Below are positions 7,778 through 19,235 of a DNA stretch of 22,213 bases, in pieces. Made by a program: the position numbers and the translations under genes. The stretch lies in UHGV virus genome UHGV-0117651; one strand, 5' to 3'. The stretch's first letter is position 1, and every line of letters starts with the position of its first letter. The notes beneath the pieces are model-generated. The model saw only the letters and a program-made list of their open reading frames with translations. It made no database searches and was not told where the DNA came from. This stretch comes from a virus.

Positions 7778-8830
7778 TTAGCTGTCGGCGAACTTCAGGC
7801 CAGTGATCATCGCGCACTTGCCATAGTCTTCAACGACATAAGCGTCATTGATGGACTGGTAGGTGGCGATGCGGTTGTATTCCGGCTCGTCTTTCATCAG
7901 GCGACGCATTGAACCTTTCTGCCAGTAAATCGACAGGTTGTTGAACGAGGTGATAAGCATCGTTGCATCCGGGAAGAACGGCGCAAGGAACACGCCCAGC
8001 CCGCCAATGGTGCGCGATGACAGGATGAGCTGCCCGGCAAGTAATTCCGCATTGGGATTCTGGCCGCTGATGCTGTTCAGCACGGGCAGACGCAGCGAGT
8101 TAAACAGGTTGCGCCCCATAATCACCGCGAGGTCGTCAGCTTCCTTGTGCCATTCATCCAGCAGGGATGAGCGCGCATCCTGTACCAGAGCATCGGCATT
8201 CGCATACTTACCCGCGTGCGCCACAGTGTTGTCCATGTTGCGGGAGGTCAGCGTCACGTCATTCATTACGCGCTCGCTGGCATCGGTTCTGATGTGCTCC
8301 AGCCAGCCCACGTTAACGTCCTGAAGCAGCTTGTTGGTGTGAAAATCAGACTCGTAGGCGTGGGATGTGCCGTTAAAGCCAATCATGATGCGATCAAGCG
8401 CTACCTGCCGGGCGATCTGTGTACTGATACGGGACTGAAAATCGCTGTGGGCCGCCCAGGTATCAAGCTGTGGGTACGAAATAAAGGTATCGTAGTTCAC
8501 CTGTTCGCACTGGTACTGACGAGACTTCATATCGATCACGTTATTCGGGTTACGGCGTTTGATGCCGTCATAACTGCTATTCGTGCGCGCAATTGGCCCG
8601 GTGGTGTCCAGGAGGATTTTTTCGCCTTTCTGGTCGGTCACGCCGATCACGTTAATTCTTTTCGTAAATTCGGTACTTTCCTTTGAGGCGTTTTCAAAAC
8701 GCTGCTGCACCGCGGGTTCCACGGTAAATCGCGATACCAGTGCAGATACCGGGATATTGTTAAGCGACGCCTGCTGCGCCATATAGCAACCCAGCTTGTT
8801 GCGGGTAATATCTGACATCACCAGATTCAT
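7778..8830 (-). CDS. N: Major capsid protein gpN
   Basis: 350-aa ORF. Several segments (TVEPAVQQ, IMIGFNGTS, VGWLEHIR, VIMGRNLF, MLITSFNNLSIYWQ, YVVEDYG) resemble P2 gpN as I recall it. A hairpin GGCGGGCAT-G-ATGCCCGCC lies between N and M. Confidence 0.85.
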   Translation of the reverse strand: MNLVMSDITRNKLGCYMAQQASLNNIPVSALVSRFTVEPAVQQRFENASKESTEFTKRINVIGVTDQKGEKILLDTTGPIARTNSSYDGIKRRNPNNVIDMKSRQYQCEQVNYDTFISYPQLDTWAAHSDFQSRISTQIARQVALDRIMIGFNGTSHAYESDFHTNKLLQDVNVGWLEHIRTDASERVMNDVTLTSRNMDNTVAHAGKYANADALVQDARSSLLDEWHKEADDLAVIMGRNLFNSLRLPVLNSISGQNPNAELLAGQLILSSRTIGGLGVFLAPFFPDATMLITSFNNLSIYWQKGSMRRLMKDEPEYNRIATYQSINDAYVVEDYGKCAMITGLKFADS

Positions 8831-15070: not shown

Positions 15071-15181
15071 TTTACGGGATTCTGAAATCCCGTTTTTGCC
15101 TGTTTTGTGCGCGCTTCATATATCGCTGCGCGTTTTTTGCTCATTTACGGGATTCGTGAGTCCCGTTTCTGTCTGTTTTTT
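15071..15181. repeat. Two ~38-bp direct repeats, each with an internal dyad (TTTACGGGATTC-N-TCCCGTTT...CTGTTTT), spaced 73 bp apart: candidate parC-like centromere or operator, or + strand terminators
   Basis: Copy 1 at 15071-15108 and copy 2 at 15144-15181, read directly. A GATTAATTAATC palindrome lies at 15058-15069, next to the parM start. Copy 2 lies inside the last codons of the gpA ORF. Confidence 0.45.
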
Positions 15182-17938
15182 GTTTCCACTGGTCAGGCCA
15201 CCCCGCAGCAGGTCTGCTTTGCGGCTGGCGCGTTCAGTGGTTTCACTGATTCTCTGTGCGTGCTCTGCGTCGCGGATGGCGCGCAGCATGTCAGAAAGCA
15301 CGGTAACGGGAGTTTTCATGGTGTTCTGGTCCTGCTGAATTGTGGATGCCAGGCGTGCGGCGGCTTCGGGTTCTGATGCCCCGAGCTGCTCCAGATAGCT
15401 GGCGACCGGGTTATGGCGGATCTCCATGCTGCATACGCCGTGATTACGGCTCAGGCGCTGCCAGAGCTGCGTGATTCGGCTGTCCGGGCGGGTATCCGGT
15501 TTGCGTACAATTTCAAATCCCTGCGGTGCAATGATGCTGCCGTCAACGTACAGACTGCCGCCCCGTAACAGGTGCTGCATCTGTTGTTCACCGATATGCA
15601 GGCCGAGAGATTCAGCAGACTCCCGCCATTCTTTAGCGAGTAATTCGTGGTTATCAGGCAAAGGCCGCTGCTGTTTGCGGCTCTGTGTCCAGCTCTGCAT
15701 TTCATCACTGCTGTTTTTTGCCTGTTTGTCACGAAGCGAACGCATCAGCGCCCGGCGTTCGTGCCGTTTCAGTGAGCGCATCCATTCGTTCACTTCAACG
15801 CCGTCAGGAAGCTGCGGCCACGGTGCTGGCCGTTCTTCCGACTGTTCTGTCCCGCTGTTGCCTGTTTCCTGTACACGGGGACAGTTATTGCCACGAGTCC
15901 AAGGGGCGGCAGGGCCGCCCTGAAGGTCAAAACCATTTTCGCGGGCGCTGTCTTCCGCTTCCGGTTTGCGTCTTACCAGCTTCCAGTTATCCGGATGCGT
16001 GCATACGCGGGAAGACTCCCCAATGAGCGGCGACCAGATCCCGTAAATCTGTACGCTCTGTTCACCGTAATCGTTCAGCTCATCTGCGAGGTCGTAGGCG
16101 GTGCGAATCAGGTAGTCTTTGCGTGGAACAAGTACGCCACCCTGTTTCTCAATGTAGGTGGCAAAACATCCGGCATCAGCGGCAGCGAGTACCGCGTCCA
16201 TTGCGTCATCCTTCAGCCGTTGCGGGCCTTCCGGGTTGCGTGCCATCTGGCTGGCAAGGCGGCGCAGTTCACGCCACACCTGACGGGAGGGGATACCAAA
16301 GAACTGGAACTGGCGGACCCGGTGAAGGCGCGCCCAGCCGATGGCGCGTTCCACGCTCTCGGCCATTGATTTTCCGGTTTCGTGGTCAACGCGTGGCTTG
16401 CCCGTTTTCGGGTCGATGCCATCCACGGCGCGGCTGTCCAGGTTTTTTCCGATGTAGGTCGCGATATAGCTGGTTGGTGTGCCTTTTGAGCCGTCGACAT
16501 ACTCCACCTTAAAGCGCGGAGTAATATCATTGCCCAGCTCGTGGCGGTCTTCCTGAATGGCAATATCGCGGGTGATGGCCACGATGCTGTCGATTTCTTC
16601 CGGATGAGCAAAGACCATCATATGCCAGTGCACGGTGCCGTCATGGTGAGGCTCCACCGTGCGGATGCCATACCAGCGCAGACCGTCGCGGTTCAGTTTT
16701 TTGCGGACTGCCGCAAAAAACGTGTTAACCAGGTAATCGCTGGAGTCGCGCATGGTGGCCCCGTTCCATTTGGGGTTCGGATGACCGTTCTCCGTTGTTG
16801 CGTGGTATTTTGACGGGCAGGTGACAGTCAGAAACACCGCTCTGTCGCCACGGGCTTCGGCCAGAAGTTCCAGTCCCTTCATGGTGGCCATCATTTCTGC
16901 CTTACGGTGAACCGGGTTACTTACTCCCGCGTAATACACCGTCTCGAGATCAATCGTGAACCCGTCTTCATTTTCTAGCATGAAACTTTTCAGGAAATCG
17001 CGTGTTTTCTCGCGCTGTGCGCGAAACTCGCTTAACGCGTCCTGGCTCAGATAGGGTGATGTTTTTCTGGAAACCAGACAGGCGGCGCGGAGTTGTTCTT
17101 CTCTCCACTCGCAACGTAACAGCCACAGTTTGCGTTTCCACCATTCCGCACAGGTCAGGCGAAGGATTGCGCCCGGCAGCAGCTCCGTGTCTGGTTCGTT
17201 CCTCCGGTCTTTGTCTGTTGTCAGTGCGTCATAATGTGGAGGCATGGCGTGCAGGTGTAACGCCATGCGGGCCAGCATCTGATACGCCTTCAGCGTTACA
17301 TCCATGGTCAGCTCGCCATCGGTCGCGCCAAAGCCATCGCAGAGTTTTTCGAAGGTGCTGCTGAACATCGCCGCCGTCATGGTGGCCAGCGTCTGTATCT
17401 GGTGTTTGTTGAGCTGCGGCAGGTAAAGCAAATCGTCCAGGCGTTCGCGTCCGGCAAGGGAGCGATAACCCGGTGTCAGCCAGTGTCCGTCAGTGCGATC
17501 CAGACGTTCGAATATTTTGCGCAGGGTTCCGCGTGCATAGCGTTCCGCCTGCCAGCTCTTTTTGCCTTTCCGGCGATCGGCTTCCTGTTTTTTGCGCAGG
17601 AAGGAGAGGTGGCGAATAAGCGGATCGCGCAGATAGGACGGCAGCAGGTGCAGCGAGGCCATGGCTTCATCCACCGCGCCTCGTGCCTGTTTTCTGGCGT
17701 CTCCTGCCAGTGTGATGGTTTTGTCCTGTTTTTCCTGTGCGTCCAGGCTTTTATTAATCAGGTTGCCCAGCGGCGTGGCGGAGAACGCCGCATCAGCCAT
17801 TTCCTGGCGGCGTTCGTTCTCTGCCCGGTAGGCATCCAGCCAGGAGGAAAGCGCGGATTCAGGAGCGGGGATCCCCGTTCCTTCACGCCCCACGGCGTGG
17901 CGCGGTTGTTGCCAGTCCCTGATGTACTCTGCCGTCAT
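15116..17938 (-). CDS. A: Rolling-circle replication initiator or endonuclease (P2 gpA family)
   Basis: 940-aa ORF with an H-x-H metal-binding motif (HWHMMVF) and a Tyr-containing motif (YIATYIGKN), characteristic of gpA-type initiators. It is the last large gene of the early operon. The ORF is longer than gpA as I recall it, with an extended C-terminus. Confidence 0.8.
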   Translation of the reverse strand: MTAEYIRDWQQPRHAVGREGTGIPAPESALSSWLDAYRAENERRQEMADAAFSATPLGNLINKSLDAQEKQDKTITLAGDARKQARGAVDEAMASLHLLPSYLRDPLIRHLSFLRKKQEADRRKGKKSWQAERYARGTLRKIFERLDRTDGHWLTPGYRSLAGRERLDDLLYLPQLNKHQIQTLATMTAAMFSSTFEKLCDGFGATDGELTMDVTLKAYQMLARMALHLHAMPPHYDALTTDKDRRNEPDTELLPGAILRLTCAEWWKRKLWLLRCEWREEQLRAACLVSRKTSPYLSQDALSEFRAQREKTRDFLKSFMLENEDGFTIDLETVYYAGVSNPVHRKAEMMATMKGLELLAEARGDRAVFLTVTCPSKYHATTENGHPNPKWNGATMRDSSDYLVNTFFAAVRKKLNRDGLRWYGIRTVEPHHDGTVHWHMMVFAHPEEIDSIVAITRDIAIQEDRHELGNDITPRFKVEYVDGSKGTPTSYIATYIGKNLDSRAVDGIDPKTGKPRVDHETGKSMAESVERAIGWARLHRVRQFQFFGIPSRQVWRELRRLASQMARNPEGPQRLKDDAMDAVLAAADAGCFATYIEKQGGVLVPRKDYLIRTAYDLADELNDYGEQSVQIYGIWSPLIGESSRVCTHPDNWKLVRRKPEAEDSARENGFDLQGGPAAPWTRGNNCPRVQETGNSGTEQSEERPAPWPQLPDGVEVNEWMRSLKRHERRALMRSLRDKQAKNSSDEMQSWTQSRKQQRPLPDNHELLAKEWRESAESLGLHIGEQQMQHLLRGGSLYVDGSIIAPQGFEIVRKPDTRPDSRITQLWQRLSRNHGVCSMEIRHNPVASYLEQLGASEPEAAARLASTIQQDQNTMKTPVTVLSDMLRAIRDAEHAQRISETTERASRKADLLRGGLTSGNKKQTETGLTNPVNEQKTRSDI

Positions 17939-17944
17939 AGTGAT

Positions 17945-18310
17945 TTACTTCGTCATGCCATTCAGGGTGTCGCGGCAGACGGTAGCCAGCCGCTGAATTT
18001 CCAGCACGGTGTCTTCTGTGTCGGCATGGCGATGTGTGATGCGGATGCTGTCGGCAATCACATCGACGATTGCAGAGGATGGGCGCTGGTAAATGCCAAT
18101 AACGGACGGGGTGCCACCTTCAATGCGGTAAAGCCTGTAATTTCCCTCGTGGCTGTCGATCATGTAGCGACCATCAATAACAATTTTTCCGTCAGCGAGT
18201 TGCGGTACAGGCAGGGATTTCAGGTACATGTCATAACGATCACGCACGCGAGCGGCAAGATCACGTTCTGTGTTGAGCAGGTATTCAAGAAAGTCGTTGG
18301 CGAGAATCAT
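17945..18310 (-). CDS. Hypothetical early-operon protein (121 aa), coupled to gpA
   Basis: ORF ending 7 nt before the gpA start. No family recognised. Confidence 0.5.
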   Translation of the reverse strand: MILANDFLEYLLNTERDLAARVRDRYDMYLKSLPVPQLADGKIVIDGRYMIDSHEGNYRLYRIEGGTPSVIGIYQRPSSAIVDVIADSIRITHRHADTEDTVLEIQRLATVCRDTLNGMTK

Positions 18311-18382
18311 TGCGGCAATCCTCTTGTTACAGATGTGCGAAGGCCTCCCGCCGCAAGGTGCAGGAAAGGCCCGGAACAGGAA

Positions 18383-18613
18383 TTAATGGTGTTTGTTTTG
18401 CTGCTGGATGAGCTGTTGAAGCTCGTGCAGATCATTCGCCAGATAGCTGTAAACAGAGGCGGAATAAATGTTTGATAGTGCGTGGCTGCGCTCATGCAGC
18501 ATATTGATGTGCATGATTTGCGCGACGCGTGATGCGCGGGAAAGTCTGCGGTTGATTTCAGTCTGGATGTGACGACGCTCCGCGATAGCGCGGTGTGGTT
18601 TGCGGTTTGCCAT
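18383..18613 (-). CDS. Hypothetical early-operon protein (76 aa, basic)
   Basis: ORF with AAGGGG upstream of the ATG. It is preceded by the structured 320-bp leader. Confidence 0.45.
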   Translation of the reverse strand: MANRKPHRAIAERRHIQTEINRRLSRASRVAQIMHINMLHERSHALSNIYSASVYSYLANDLHELQQLIQQQNKHH

Positions 18614-18935
18614 GGTGTGGCCCCTTGTGTAGTAAGTTGTGAAAACTCACCATCCAGAGCTGCGAAACTGTGGGTGGCGAGACGTACGAGGTTCGCAGTA
18701 CCGGCTACACAAGAACCCGGCCCGACCGAAGTCGGCCCCGTACGCCCCGCCATAATTCTGACGCGAAAAAAACGTGGCAATACAGTACGCACAAAAAAAC
18801 CGCTGGCGCGGTTGTGCGCTTGTGTAGTCAGCAGGCTGCGAAACCCGACACCCGTTTTGTGAGGTGCAGCGGAAATGTAACCTGACTGATTGCGACATGG
18901 CAAGCGGTTTTTTTGTGTGTGCATGTTCTGGTTTC
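18614..18935 (-). promoter_or_regulatory. Structured noncoding leader inside the early operon, with three copies of a bipartite motif (CTTGTGTAG + GCTGCGAA); the middle copy is inverted
   Basis: Copy 1 at 18623-18661 (direct), copy 2 at 18690-18714 (inverted, GGTTCGCAG...GCTACACAAG) and copy 3 at 18819-18844 (direct). A GC-rich hairpin lies at 18716-18740. Copy 1 overlaps the ribosome-binding site of the 76-aa ORF. Confidence 0.45.
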
Positions 18936-19235
18936 TTACTGGTTCAGAAAAAAATCAAAAACCTTGTCAATGCGTTGCAGCAGCTCTTGCTGCATTGCTT
19001 CCGGCGTTTCCGGTTCGCCAGGTGCCCCCAGCGTTGCGCAGAAATCAGCGATTTCATGATGGAGCGTCAGGCGAATGGCAGGAGCCGTGGTTTTGGCGTG
19101 CTCCAGCTGATCCAGCAGTGCCAGCACAGCAGACGGCGAGAGCATTACGCGAAATGCCAGTAATTTTTGAGGAGTTGCCATTCGTTGCAGGGCAAATGCC
19201 AGTTCGCGTAGCTTCTGGTGGTTGATGGTGCTCAT
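18936..19235 (-). CDS. Hypothetical early-operon protein (99 aa)
   Basis: ORF whose start overlaps the stop of the upstream gene. No family recognised. Confidence 0.5.
   Translation of the reverse strand: MSTINHQKLRELAFALQRMATPQKLLAFRVMLSPSAVLALLDQLEHAKTTAPAIRLTLHHEIADFCATLGAPGEPETPEAMQQELLQRIDKVFDFFLNQ

Follow-up and report, generated by a model that had tools for sequence, protein, structure and literature searches.

The stretch of DNA analysed here, the 22,213-nucleotide (nt) virus genome UHGV-0117651 (hereafter the window), is a P88-like E. coli prophage (Xuanwuvirus, Peduoviridae, P2 family), and the element in question is a 322-bp gap between the gene of a 99-amino acid (aa) protein and that of a 76-aa 'derepression protein'. 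Unless another strand is given, all features lie on the minus strand, (-). An earlier note on this DNA had described the gap as a structured leader in which a bipartite motif occurs three times, in direct, inverted and again direct orientation, and its coordinates proved accurate in an exact copy scan and with a repeat finder. The first half of the motif, CTTGTGTAG, is found exactly three times in the 22-kb window, all within the gap (+ 18624-18632, + 18819-18827 and - 18705-18713), with 0.12 copies expected by chance and at least three reached in 0/100 shuffles. The second half, CTGCGAA, likewise occurs exactly three times in the window and only here (+ 18660-18666, + 18836-18842 and - 18692-18698); its count by itself is not significant (4.3 expected), and what is significant is that each copy adjoins a copy of the 9-mer in matching order and orientation. 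The repeat finder returned the same direct pairs (D1, D3) and inverted pairs (I4-I7).

Two curated RNA families were recognized in the gap using Rfam covariance models. The isrK family (RF01394) matches at 61.9 bits (gathering threshold 50) over model positions 1-77 of 77, at 18867..18793, and the C4 family (RF01695) at 83.2 bits (gathering threshold 45; E 2.6e-15) over positions 1-87 of 87, at 18757..18670. The matches adjoin each other on one strand, and no further family was at or above threshold in the Rfam scan of the window. As these curated models match at full length and above threshold, which establishes family membership, the element is read as a module of two small RNAs (sRNAs) with a function in immunity rather than as a new riboregulator. 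The IsrK or P4 seqA-type sRNA (18793..18867) holds the upstream copy of the motif, and the C4 or P4 CI-type antisense RNA (18670..18757) holds the middle one. The C4 consensus structure consists of a long closing stem (17 bp here) around two hairpins, with the middle copy in an unpaired loop and joint; the middle copy is the recognition surface of an autonomously folding C4/CI-type small RNA, and the outer copies are its two targets. The mature C4 is predicted at approximately 18751..18673 (79 nt) by comparison with the annotated mature C4 of P1. The order isrK-then-C4 on one strand is also present in 8/8 other scanned loci (P88, Citrobacter phage Shae_phiSM, five lambdoid or Shiga toxin (Stx) phages, and P4), and in the lambdoid/Stx loci the pair precedes Rha-type or other anti-repressor genes. 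IsrK and C4 have been equated with seqA and CI RNA, respectively, of P4, and P1, P7, N15 and lambdoid prophages are also reported to have the 'IsrK-C4 immunity system' (PMC3632133); the characterised members of the C4 family, P1/P7 c4 and P4 CI, are excised, stable and trans-acting (PMC3632133, PMC12197685). The gap of the window is thus probably an IsrK–C4 antisense-RNA immunity module, the same device as P4 seqA–CI–seqC and P1/P7 a1b1–c4–a2b2.

The recognition sites are named here after P1, with a1 and b1 in IsrK, b' and a' in C4, and a2 and b2 between C4 and the gene. Within IsrK lie a1 (18842..18836, UUCGCAG) and b1 (18827..18819, CUACACAAG). In C4, b' (18713..18705, CUUGUGUAG) occupies the 12-nt loop of hairpin 2, and a' (18698..18692, CUGCGAA) the single-stranded joint that leads into the 3' strand of the closing stem. 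The site a2 (18666..18660, UUCGCAG) is located just 3' of C4 and pairs with a', and b2 (18632..18624, CUACACAAG; element 18621..18632) overlaps the Shine-Dalgarno sequence. Read on the minus strand RNA, the gene-proximal copy is CUACACAAG-GGG-CCACACC-AUG, in which the 9-mer overlaps AAGGGG (18626..18621), the Shine-Dalgarno sequence, with a spacing of 7 nt to the ATG at 18613; the earlier note had correctly placed the Shine-Dalgarno sequence in this copy. The a':a2 duplex has 7 bp (-10.5 kcal/mol) and the duplex of the C4 loop with b2 has 11 bp (-13.7 kcal/mol) and spans the Shine-Dalgarno sequence, so pairing with the middle copy should occlude the ribosome-binding site as had been claimed, with the upstream copy competing for the middle copy.

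The compensatory changes in homologues that the earlier note had proposed as a check are abundant, and are seen in the duplex energies of 12 loci, the paired sites of six alleles and a wider set of 16 loci. In a register-free matrix of duplex energies over 12 loci (including P4 and P1), each C4 prefers its own downstream target in 12/12 cases and its own upstream target in 12/12 cases. The mean energies for downstream targets are -23.8 kcal/mol with the own target vs -13.6 ± 3.3 kcal/mol with those of other loci, those for upstream targets are -24.1 vs -14.6 ± 2.9 kcal/mol, and the preference was matched in 0/100,000 permutations. Inter-copy pairs were counted in an alignment of six P88-like sequences, an 11-sequence MAFFT alignment having been dropped for these helices as its lambdoid and P4 b2 rows were out of register. 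Across the six alleles the 16 pairs of a1:a' and b1:b' are 100% paired, with nine pairs double-changed and 0 single-sided; the covariation score is 0.717 vs 0.158 in shuffles (0/500 reach it), and slid registers of the alignment pair only 22-53%. The a':a2 and b':b2 set gives identical figures, with compensatory double changes in 4/7 a':a2 pairs and 5/9 b':b2 pairs, thereby making the co-variation three-way.

The larger set of 16 P88-like loci comprises these six and ten E. coli prophages sampled over the identity range, and contains 13 combinations drawn from 5 a' and 8 b' alleles. Complementarity of a1:a', b1:b' and a2:a' is perfect in 16/16 loci (7/7 pairs for a2:a'), and b2:b' is paired at 9/9 positions in ten loci and at 8/9 in six. 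The single b2 mismatch of these six loci is always at the 5'-most nucleotide, and the copy in IsrK, b1, is perfect; in such alleles the decoy would have a slight advantage over the mRNA in binding C4. Variable columns are enriched in the six sites (30/48 vs 63/212, p = 4e-5), and the a and b elements re-assort independently between prophages. E. coli N51, for example, joins the b element of the window to the a element of E. albertii, E. coli 12A joins the window a to a Salmonella b, and the P88 allele has CUGUAGUUG as b' and GUGGAAA as a'. To judge from the sequences, a constant scaffold with hypervariable, co-evolving sites would fit a determinant of specificity (immunity) acting in trans; this is favoured over a switch in cis because a purely cis-acting switch needs no diversification.

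The gene that b2 would directly gate encodes the 76-aa protein (18613..18383), a homologue of epsilon, the helper derepression protein of P4. It matches Pfam PF25738 (Derepression) at 29.2 bits (cut-off 27), a family on which P4 epsilon itself scores 170 bits; BLASTP against P4 epsilon gives 27% identity over residues 1-62 (E 3e-8), and public records annotate the product as 'derepression protein'. By analogy with the related systems, the module should keep this anti-repressor gene silent. Where the earlier note had the gap gating the replication sub-operon, the gene under direct control would be the epsilon-type derepression gene, and gpA is found further downstream.

A working model may be put together from these sites, in which processing, action in trans, the direction of regulation and polarity on gene A would be as described for P1, P7, P4 and Gifsy-1. 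The promoter predicted at 18903..18874 would fire independently of the early promoter, and most of its transcripts would end at the IsrK terminator, yielding an IsrK of approximately 75 nt, with the remainder reading through. From the read-through RNA a C4 of approximately 79 nt would be excised, by analogy with P1 and P4. In both of those phages the excision of C4 involves RNase P at the 5' end, and a product of approximately 77-79 nt is expected of the C4 family. The C4 of the window would then offer b' in its hairpin loop and a' in its single-stranded joint, and these would pair with b2 and a2 on any transcript that reaches the derepression gene; as b2 overlaps the Shine-Dalgarno sequence, translation is proposed to be blocked. 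The untranslated RNA, possibly together with a terminator-like hairpin that carries a2, would lower transcription into gene A. IsrK, with its identical a1 and b1, would compete for C4 both as part of the read-through transcript (in cis) and as a separate short RNA (in trans), and this competition is therefore proposed to set the threshold of the switch.

The predicted sigma-70 promoter-like site of IsrK (18874..18903) consists of TTGCCA, 18 nt and TACATT, with a predicted start at approximately 18867. It ends 7 nt before the isrK match, of which 18867 is the 5' end; the sequence is invariant in 7 P88-like sequences and is, by a consensus scan, a consensus match only, with comparable -35 and -10 elements in front of IsrK in P4 and the lambdoid homologues. 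At the 3' end of IsrK, a hairpin with its stem at 18813..18798 and a U7 tract at 18799..18793 forms an intrinsic terminator-like site, the stem of which has a pair probability of 0.67-0.87 in the promoter-proximal transcript. IsrK is thus bracketed exactly by a promoter-like and a terminator-like site. A second promoter-like site, TTGCCA-17-AATTAT (18780..18752), overlaps the C4 5' leader and is unlikely to be a promoter. Its AATTAT forms the conserved leader that directly precedes the mature C4 end annotated in P1, transcripts starting 7 nt past it would lack the 5' strand of the closing stem, and the lambdoid homologues do not maintain the spacing to the -35 element. A processing leader is the more likely identity of AATTAT than a -10 box.

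Upstream of the IsrK promoter -10 box and overlapping its -35 box lies a 21-nt arm, ACACACAAAAAAACCGCUUGC (18900..18920; inverted repeat I1), which is 90% complementary to 18807..18787, that is, to the 3' half of the IsrK terminator and its U tract. The helix of arm and terminator is present in the minimum free energy (MFE) structure of the 18935..18590 RNA, and in equilibrium folds the terminator stem has a probability of 0.00 in read-in transcripts with the arm vs 0.67-0.87 in those from the IsrK promoter. Both strands of this helix are invariant in all P88-like relatives, and the lambdoid and P4 versions lack the upstream arm. The stretch 18920..18900 is tentatively regarded as a promoter-dependent anti-terminator, which would be carried only by RNA that reaches the module from the early operon.

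Between C4 and the gene, an alternative hairpin (18642..18681) can be formed by CUCGCCA (18681..18675) and UGGUGAG (18652..18646), with a2 in its loop and UUUU (18645..18642) behind it. It uses the 3' strand of the C4 closing stem and hence excludes that stem, and it appears in the MFE structure of the 18867..18596 transcript. In 11 homologues 90.9% of its alignment cells are paired and 5/9 pairs are double-changed, the latter driven by P4 and PhiR12_3. The hairpin is terminator-like and may be the counterpart of a CI-dependent terminator in P4. The possibility thus arises that the module is the same one and that its main output is premature termination in the manner of P4, for instance at this hairpin and its U run. 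P4, in which CI RNA, epsilon and a replication gene follow one another, is the closest in gene order, and CI-dependent premature termination has been reported for it (PMC4825925, PMC3632133); the hairpin between C4 and the gene, which is conserved and co-varies, holds a2 in its loop and has a U-rich tail, would suit such an output. The U run is, however, short, and all homologues examined have their b2 over the Shine-Dalgarno sequence, 8-11 nt in front of the ATG, which argues for translation as a direct target, as in P1. Termination as the main output is therefore a possible reading, albeit clearly the less probable one, and as translational block and termination are not mutually exclusive, the two outputs can coexist.

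The folds of the leader bear on a further alternative, in which the gap is a purely cis-acting leader switch whose middle copy toggles within one transcript without any excised, trans-acting RNA. When the folds of the 18867..18596 RNA are constrained, pairing of the middle with the upstream copy has -104.2 kcal/mol, equal to the unconstrained MFE, the autonomous C4 fold follows at -103.8 kcal/mol (0.4 above the MFE), and pairing of the middle with the downstream copy has -101.5 kcal/mol. The middle copy can accordingly pair with either outer copy and not with both, as the earlier note had held, and the alternative folds it had suggested computing amount to three states within 3 kcal/mol that are nearly isoenergetic, supporting a competition of the outer copies for the middle one. 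In the MFE structure the Shine-Dalgarno region is left unpaired. In the longer 18935..18590 RNA it is the C4 fold that constitutes the MFE (z = -3.5).

The near-equal energies, and an MFE in which upstream:middle pairing leaves the Shine-Dalgarno sequence free, are what a switch in cis would lead one to expect, and the equivalent pairing in Gifsy-1 is backed by compensatory mutations: there, alternative structures have been described in which IsrK, within one transcript or as a separate RNA in trans, pairs with a downstream complementary segment (Hershko-Shalev et al. 2016, PMC4825925), the upstream:middle cis-paired form being translationally inactive and the short IsrK being the activator (PMC4825925). 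In the earlier note, pairing of the upstream and middle copies would be the state that frees the ribosome-binding site, an assignment of on and off states that is only putative. Against this stand the full-length membership of the middle segment in a family with excised, trans-acting members (PMC3632133, PMC12197685), the location of the upstream copy inside an sRNA with a terminator of its own, whose Gifsy-1 counterpart acts in trans, and the diversification and re-assortment of the pairing sites on a constant scaffold (13 combinations in 16 loci). Nor is a sensing input for a choice between helices evident, as neither another Rfam family above threshold, nor a ligand pocket, nor a conserved leader peptide was found in the leader; the concentrations of the two sRNAs account better for what selects between the helices. 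A switch acting in cis alone is thus improbable. Of the attenuator or riboregulator that the earlier note had seen in this arrangement, the mutually exclusive helices and the logic of competition are retained, but the element is not an uncharacterised cis leader and instead consists of the Rfam families isrK and C4.

Some observations nevertheless weigh against the two-sRNA module in the form proposed. In the transcript from the predicted IsrK start, IsrK paired in cis with the recognition region of C4 forms the MFE structure in place of the C4 fold (-104.2 vs -103.8 kcal/mol), and for this reason the yield of free C4 is uncertain. The U tract behind the alternative hairpin is just 4 nt, and the orf45-type arrangement of Gifsy-1 is not conserved, the corresponding frame here extending over 148 codons and past the epsilon-like gene. 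The ends of the mature RNAs in this prophage are, moreover, predictions, as are its promoter and terminator.

The surroundings of the module are those of a P2-like early operon. In the 1.1 kb around the locus the window has 96-98% identity to several P88-like phages and approximately 1000 E. coli chromosomes; E. coli IHE3034, UMNF18 and AR_0013 are examples of strains with a near-identical prophage. In the gene order of near-identical annotated records a MarR-type gene comes first, on the same (-) strand, and is followed by the 99-aa gene (19235..18936) upstream of the gap, the 76-aa gene of the epsilon-type derepression (anti-repressor) protein, a 121-aa protein of unassigned function taken from the open reading frame (ORF) list (18310..17945), and the 940-aa replication endonuclease gpA (17938..15116; Pfam Phage_GPA, 435 bits). 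The 121-aa gene and gpA (15116..18310) form the downstream part of the transcription unit of the epsilon-like gene, and polarity may affect both; the divergent repressor and early promoter region lie approximately 2.6 kb upstream of the module. The IsrK–C4 module is present in 1087/5426 complete E. coli genomes (~20%), with 1 to 4 copies in each and roughly 1,200 copies in total; if immunity acts in trans, copies that share a genome would be expected to differ in specificity. A protein-based scan of genome contigs gave 3 loci, all of which were used, and a pattern scan of viral contigs for the C4 core gave one locus, which was left out of the analysis. One of the 3, the 226-kb contig NZ_JBQPOM010000071.1, is labelled 'Vagococcus sp. 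WN89Y', a Gram-positive organism, and holds an enterobacterial P88-like module 88% identical to the window; the contig is probably a case of assembly contamination or mislabelling. That the module is a decaying remnant, functionless in this prophage, could be suspected as the P88 paper mentions neither an antisense RNA nor immunity, but it is very unlikely given perfect or near-perfect complementarity of three copies over 16 loci and 13 allele combinations, Rfam matches of full length and the presence of the module in 1087/5426 complete E. coli genomes.

The gap is also crossed by reading frames, one of which has been annotated as a gene in some genomes. The 83-aa ORF (18898..18647) has no Pfam hit. 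The 205-aa ORF (18924..18307) matches Pfam PF10554 (Phage_ASH) at 24.9 bits, below the cut-off of 26. The Phage_ASH profile coincides with translated IsrK, C4 and target DNA in P4, in which an obsolete 'cI' ORF (8168-8584) scores 59.7 bits, and in mEp460, in which an over-extended Rha coding sequence (CDS; 441-1592) scores 57.4 bits. The pattern also concerns locus L022 (77-521). The 'Ash family' accordingly looks like a protein-level shadow of RNA genes. Calls by the Prokaryotic Genome Annotation Pipeline (PGAP) are inconsistent, with the region left blank, given as an 'ash family' pseudogene or given as a CDS, and in E. coli ETEC1730 a 618-nt 'ash family protein' CDS is annotated in place of the derepression gene. 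The anti-repressor/Rha CDSs of lambdoid/Stx loci (L005 741-1604, L006 446-1597, mEp460 441-1592) similarly have a long N-terminal extension that covers IsrK and C4; their real start is probably the ATG 8-11 nt after b2.

A third frame starts from the AUG inside AAUUAUGG, at the C4 5' end, where 'orf45' of Gifsy-1 starts, and is open for 148 codons (18307-18753). It crosses the whole epsilon-like gene out of frame, and at its end an ATGA overlap joins it to the first codon of the 121-aa gene (18310). The frame is open in 6/7 P88-like relatives and is broken in E. albertii by a 1-nt deletion, with perfect pairing there; it could be due to chance, a coupling device or an overlapping gene. Conservation of the gap on account of a protein gene, be it the 'Ash family' 205-aa ORF or the 83-aa ORF that the earlier note had named as a competing explanation, can draw on the sub-threshold Phage_ASH hit (24.9 vs 26), the PGAP 'ash family protein' in some genomes, the open frame with its ATGA overlap, and the reported translation of the Gifsy-1 short ORF from that AUG (PMC4825925). 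This explanation is nonetheless the least credible of all, as the Phage_ASH profile mirrors RNA genes in P4 and mEp460, the sequences vary by compensatory nucleotide changes at the three sites and not by codon-wise drift, pairing stays perfect in E. albertii where the long frame is broken, the long ORF overlaps out of frame a gene with genuine homology to P4 epsilon, and the 83-aa ORF is interrupted by stop codons or lacks its start in 5/5 other P88-like relatives.

The order of elements in the P4 immunity region, PLE – seqA – CI RNA/seqB – seqC – … – epsilon – alpha, is closely followed in the window. P4 likewise has isrK (60.8 bits, 8692..8615) and then C4/CI (74.9 bits, 8507..8420) upstream of epsilon, and in both cases the first downstream protein-family match is to the epsilon derepression family, followed by a replication gene. 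A promoter-like site directly before IsrK and a bipartite target on both sides of the RNA are also common to the two, as is a co-varying hairpin that holds the a2/seqC site. Unlike P4, a satellite with a primase, the window is an entire helper-type phage of the P2-like kind, equipped with a repressor of its own, a cox-type early operon and gpA. The spacers are shorter, with 35 nt between IsrK and C4 here vs 107 nt in P4, and 56 nt between C4 and the epsilon-type gene vs approximately 245 nt. In P4 the target is located at the start codon of another ORF, whereas b2 of the window lies on the Shine-Dalgarno sequence of the epsilon-like gene itself. The recognition sequences differ from those of P4, and on the basis of the off-diagonal duplex energies no cross-immunity is predicted.

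In P1, the GenBank record annotates promoters, a1, b1, C4 RNA, a2 and b2, followed by icd and ant, although the a1 and b1 sites are only 'putative' in this annotation. The recognition elements are again in a loop and a joint, and the gene-proximal site is 11 nt before icd. As in P1 and P7, an anti-repressor would be controlled, and a few co-varying nucleotides set specificity, which is the basis of heteroimmunity; in those phages c4 acts at the ribosome-binding site to block the expression of ant, and it is the determinant of P1/P7 heteroimmunity (PMC12197685). The upstream leader of P1 has no detectable similarity to the IsrK of the window when compared at the DNA level, rather than by the isrK model. 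Furthermore, icd-ant is controlled in P1 by translational coupling, whereas here the first gene is itself of the epsilon type, and P1 is a Punavirus plasmid-prophage from another phage family.

Gifsy-1 provides a third point of comparison in isrK – orf45/STnc1160 – anrP. Its IsrK has its own promoter and a leaky terminator (PMC4825925), both of which are predicted here, and in its read-through RNA the anti-repressor gene is preceded by a segment whose sequence is complementary to the middle part of IsrK (PMC4825925); the authors relate IsrK to P4 seqA and STnc1160 to CI (PMC4825925). Gifsy-1 differs from the window in being lambdoid and in that IsrK activates through translation of orf45, which is coupled to anrP (PMC4825925), and the stop of the orf45-type frame before the next gene, present in Gifsy-1, is absent here. 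The Gifsy-1 paper is without an analysis of an a2/b2 target at the ribosome-binding site of the anti-repressor gene (PMC4825925). The Gifsy-1 mutations G28/G31/C159/C162 are matched to a1:a' by position only, a1 being IsrK positions 26-32 and a' lying approximately 160-167 nt into lambdoid-type modules.

The system itself is already known, having been described in P4, P1/P7, N15, Gifsy-1 and lambdoid prophages, and no new regulatory principle is revealed by the present locus. No description was found of its presence in P88-like P2-family phages directly before an epsilon homologue, nor of the combinatorial diversity of its alleles in E. coli genomes and the possible read-in anti-terminator. 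It is conceivable, if rather unlikely, that the P88-like cassette amounts to a second RNA-based layer of immunity and induction with promoter-dependent anti-termination, a combinatorial code and a helper-borne epsilon-type anti-repressor, three features that may not have been described for P4, P1 or Gifsy-1. Were this so, lytic read-in transcripts would bypass the terminator that stops transcripts from the module's own promoter, and through its helper-borne epsilon the module would be connected with P4-like satellites and with P2-like prophages of the same host, be it in cross-talk or in defence.

For the annotation of E. coli prophages, a very common region that has been left blank or assigned to the 'ash family' is corrected to two curated RNA families, which probably control an anti-repressor. 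The RNA immunity and epsilon cassette of P4 has a close counterpart in helper-type phages of the P2 family, and this counterpart bears on the exchange of regulatory modules between satellites and their helpers. The natural specificity alleles, in turn, are a ready-made set for studying how short kissing interactions encode heteroimmunity.

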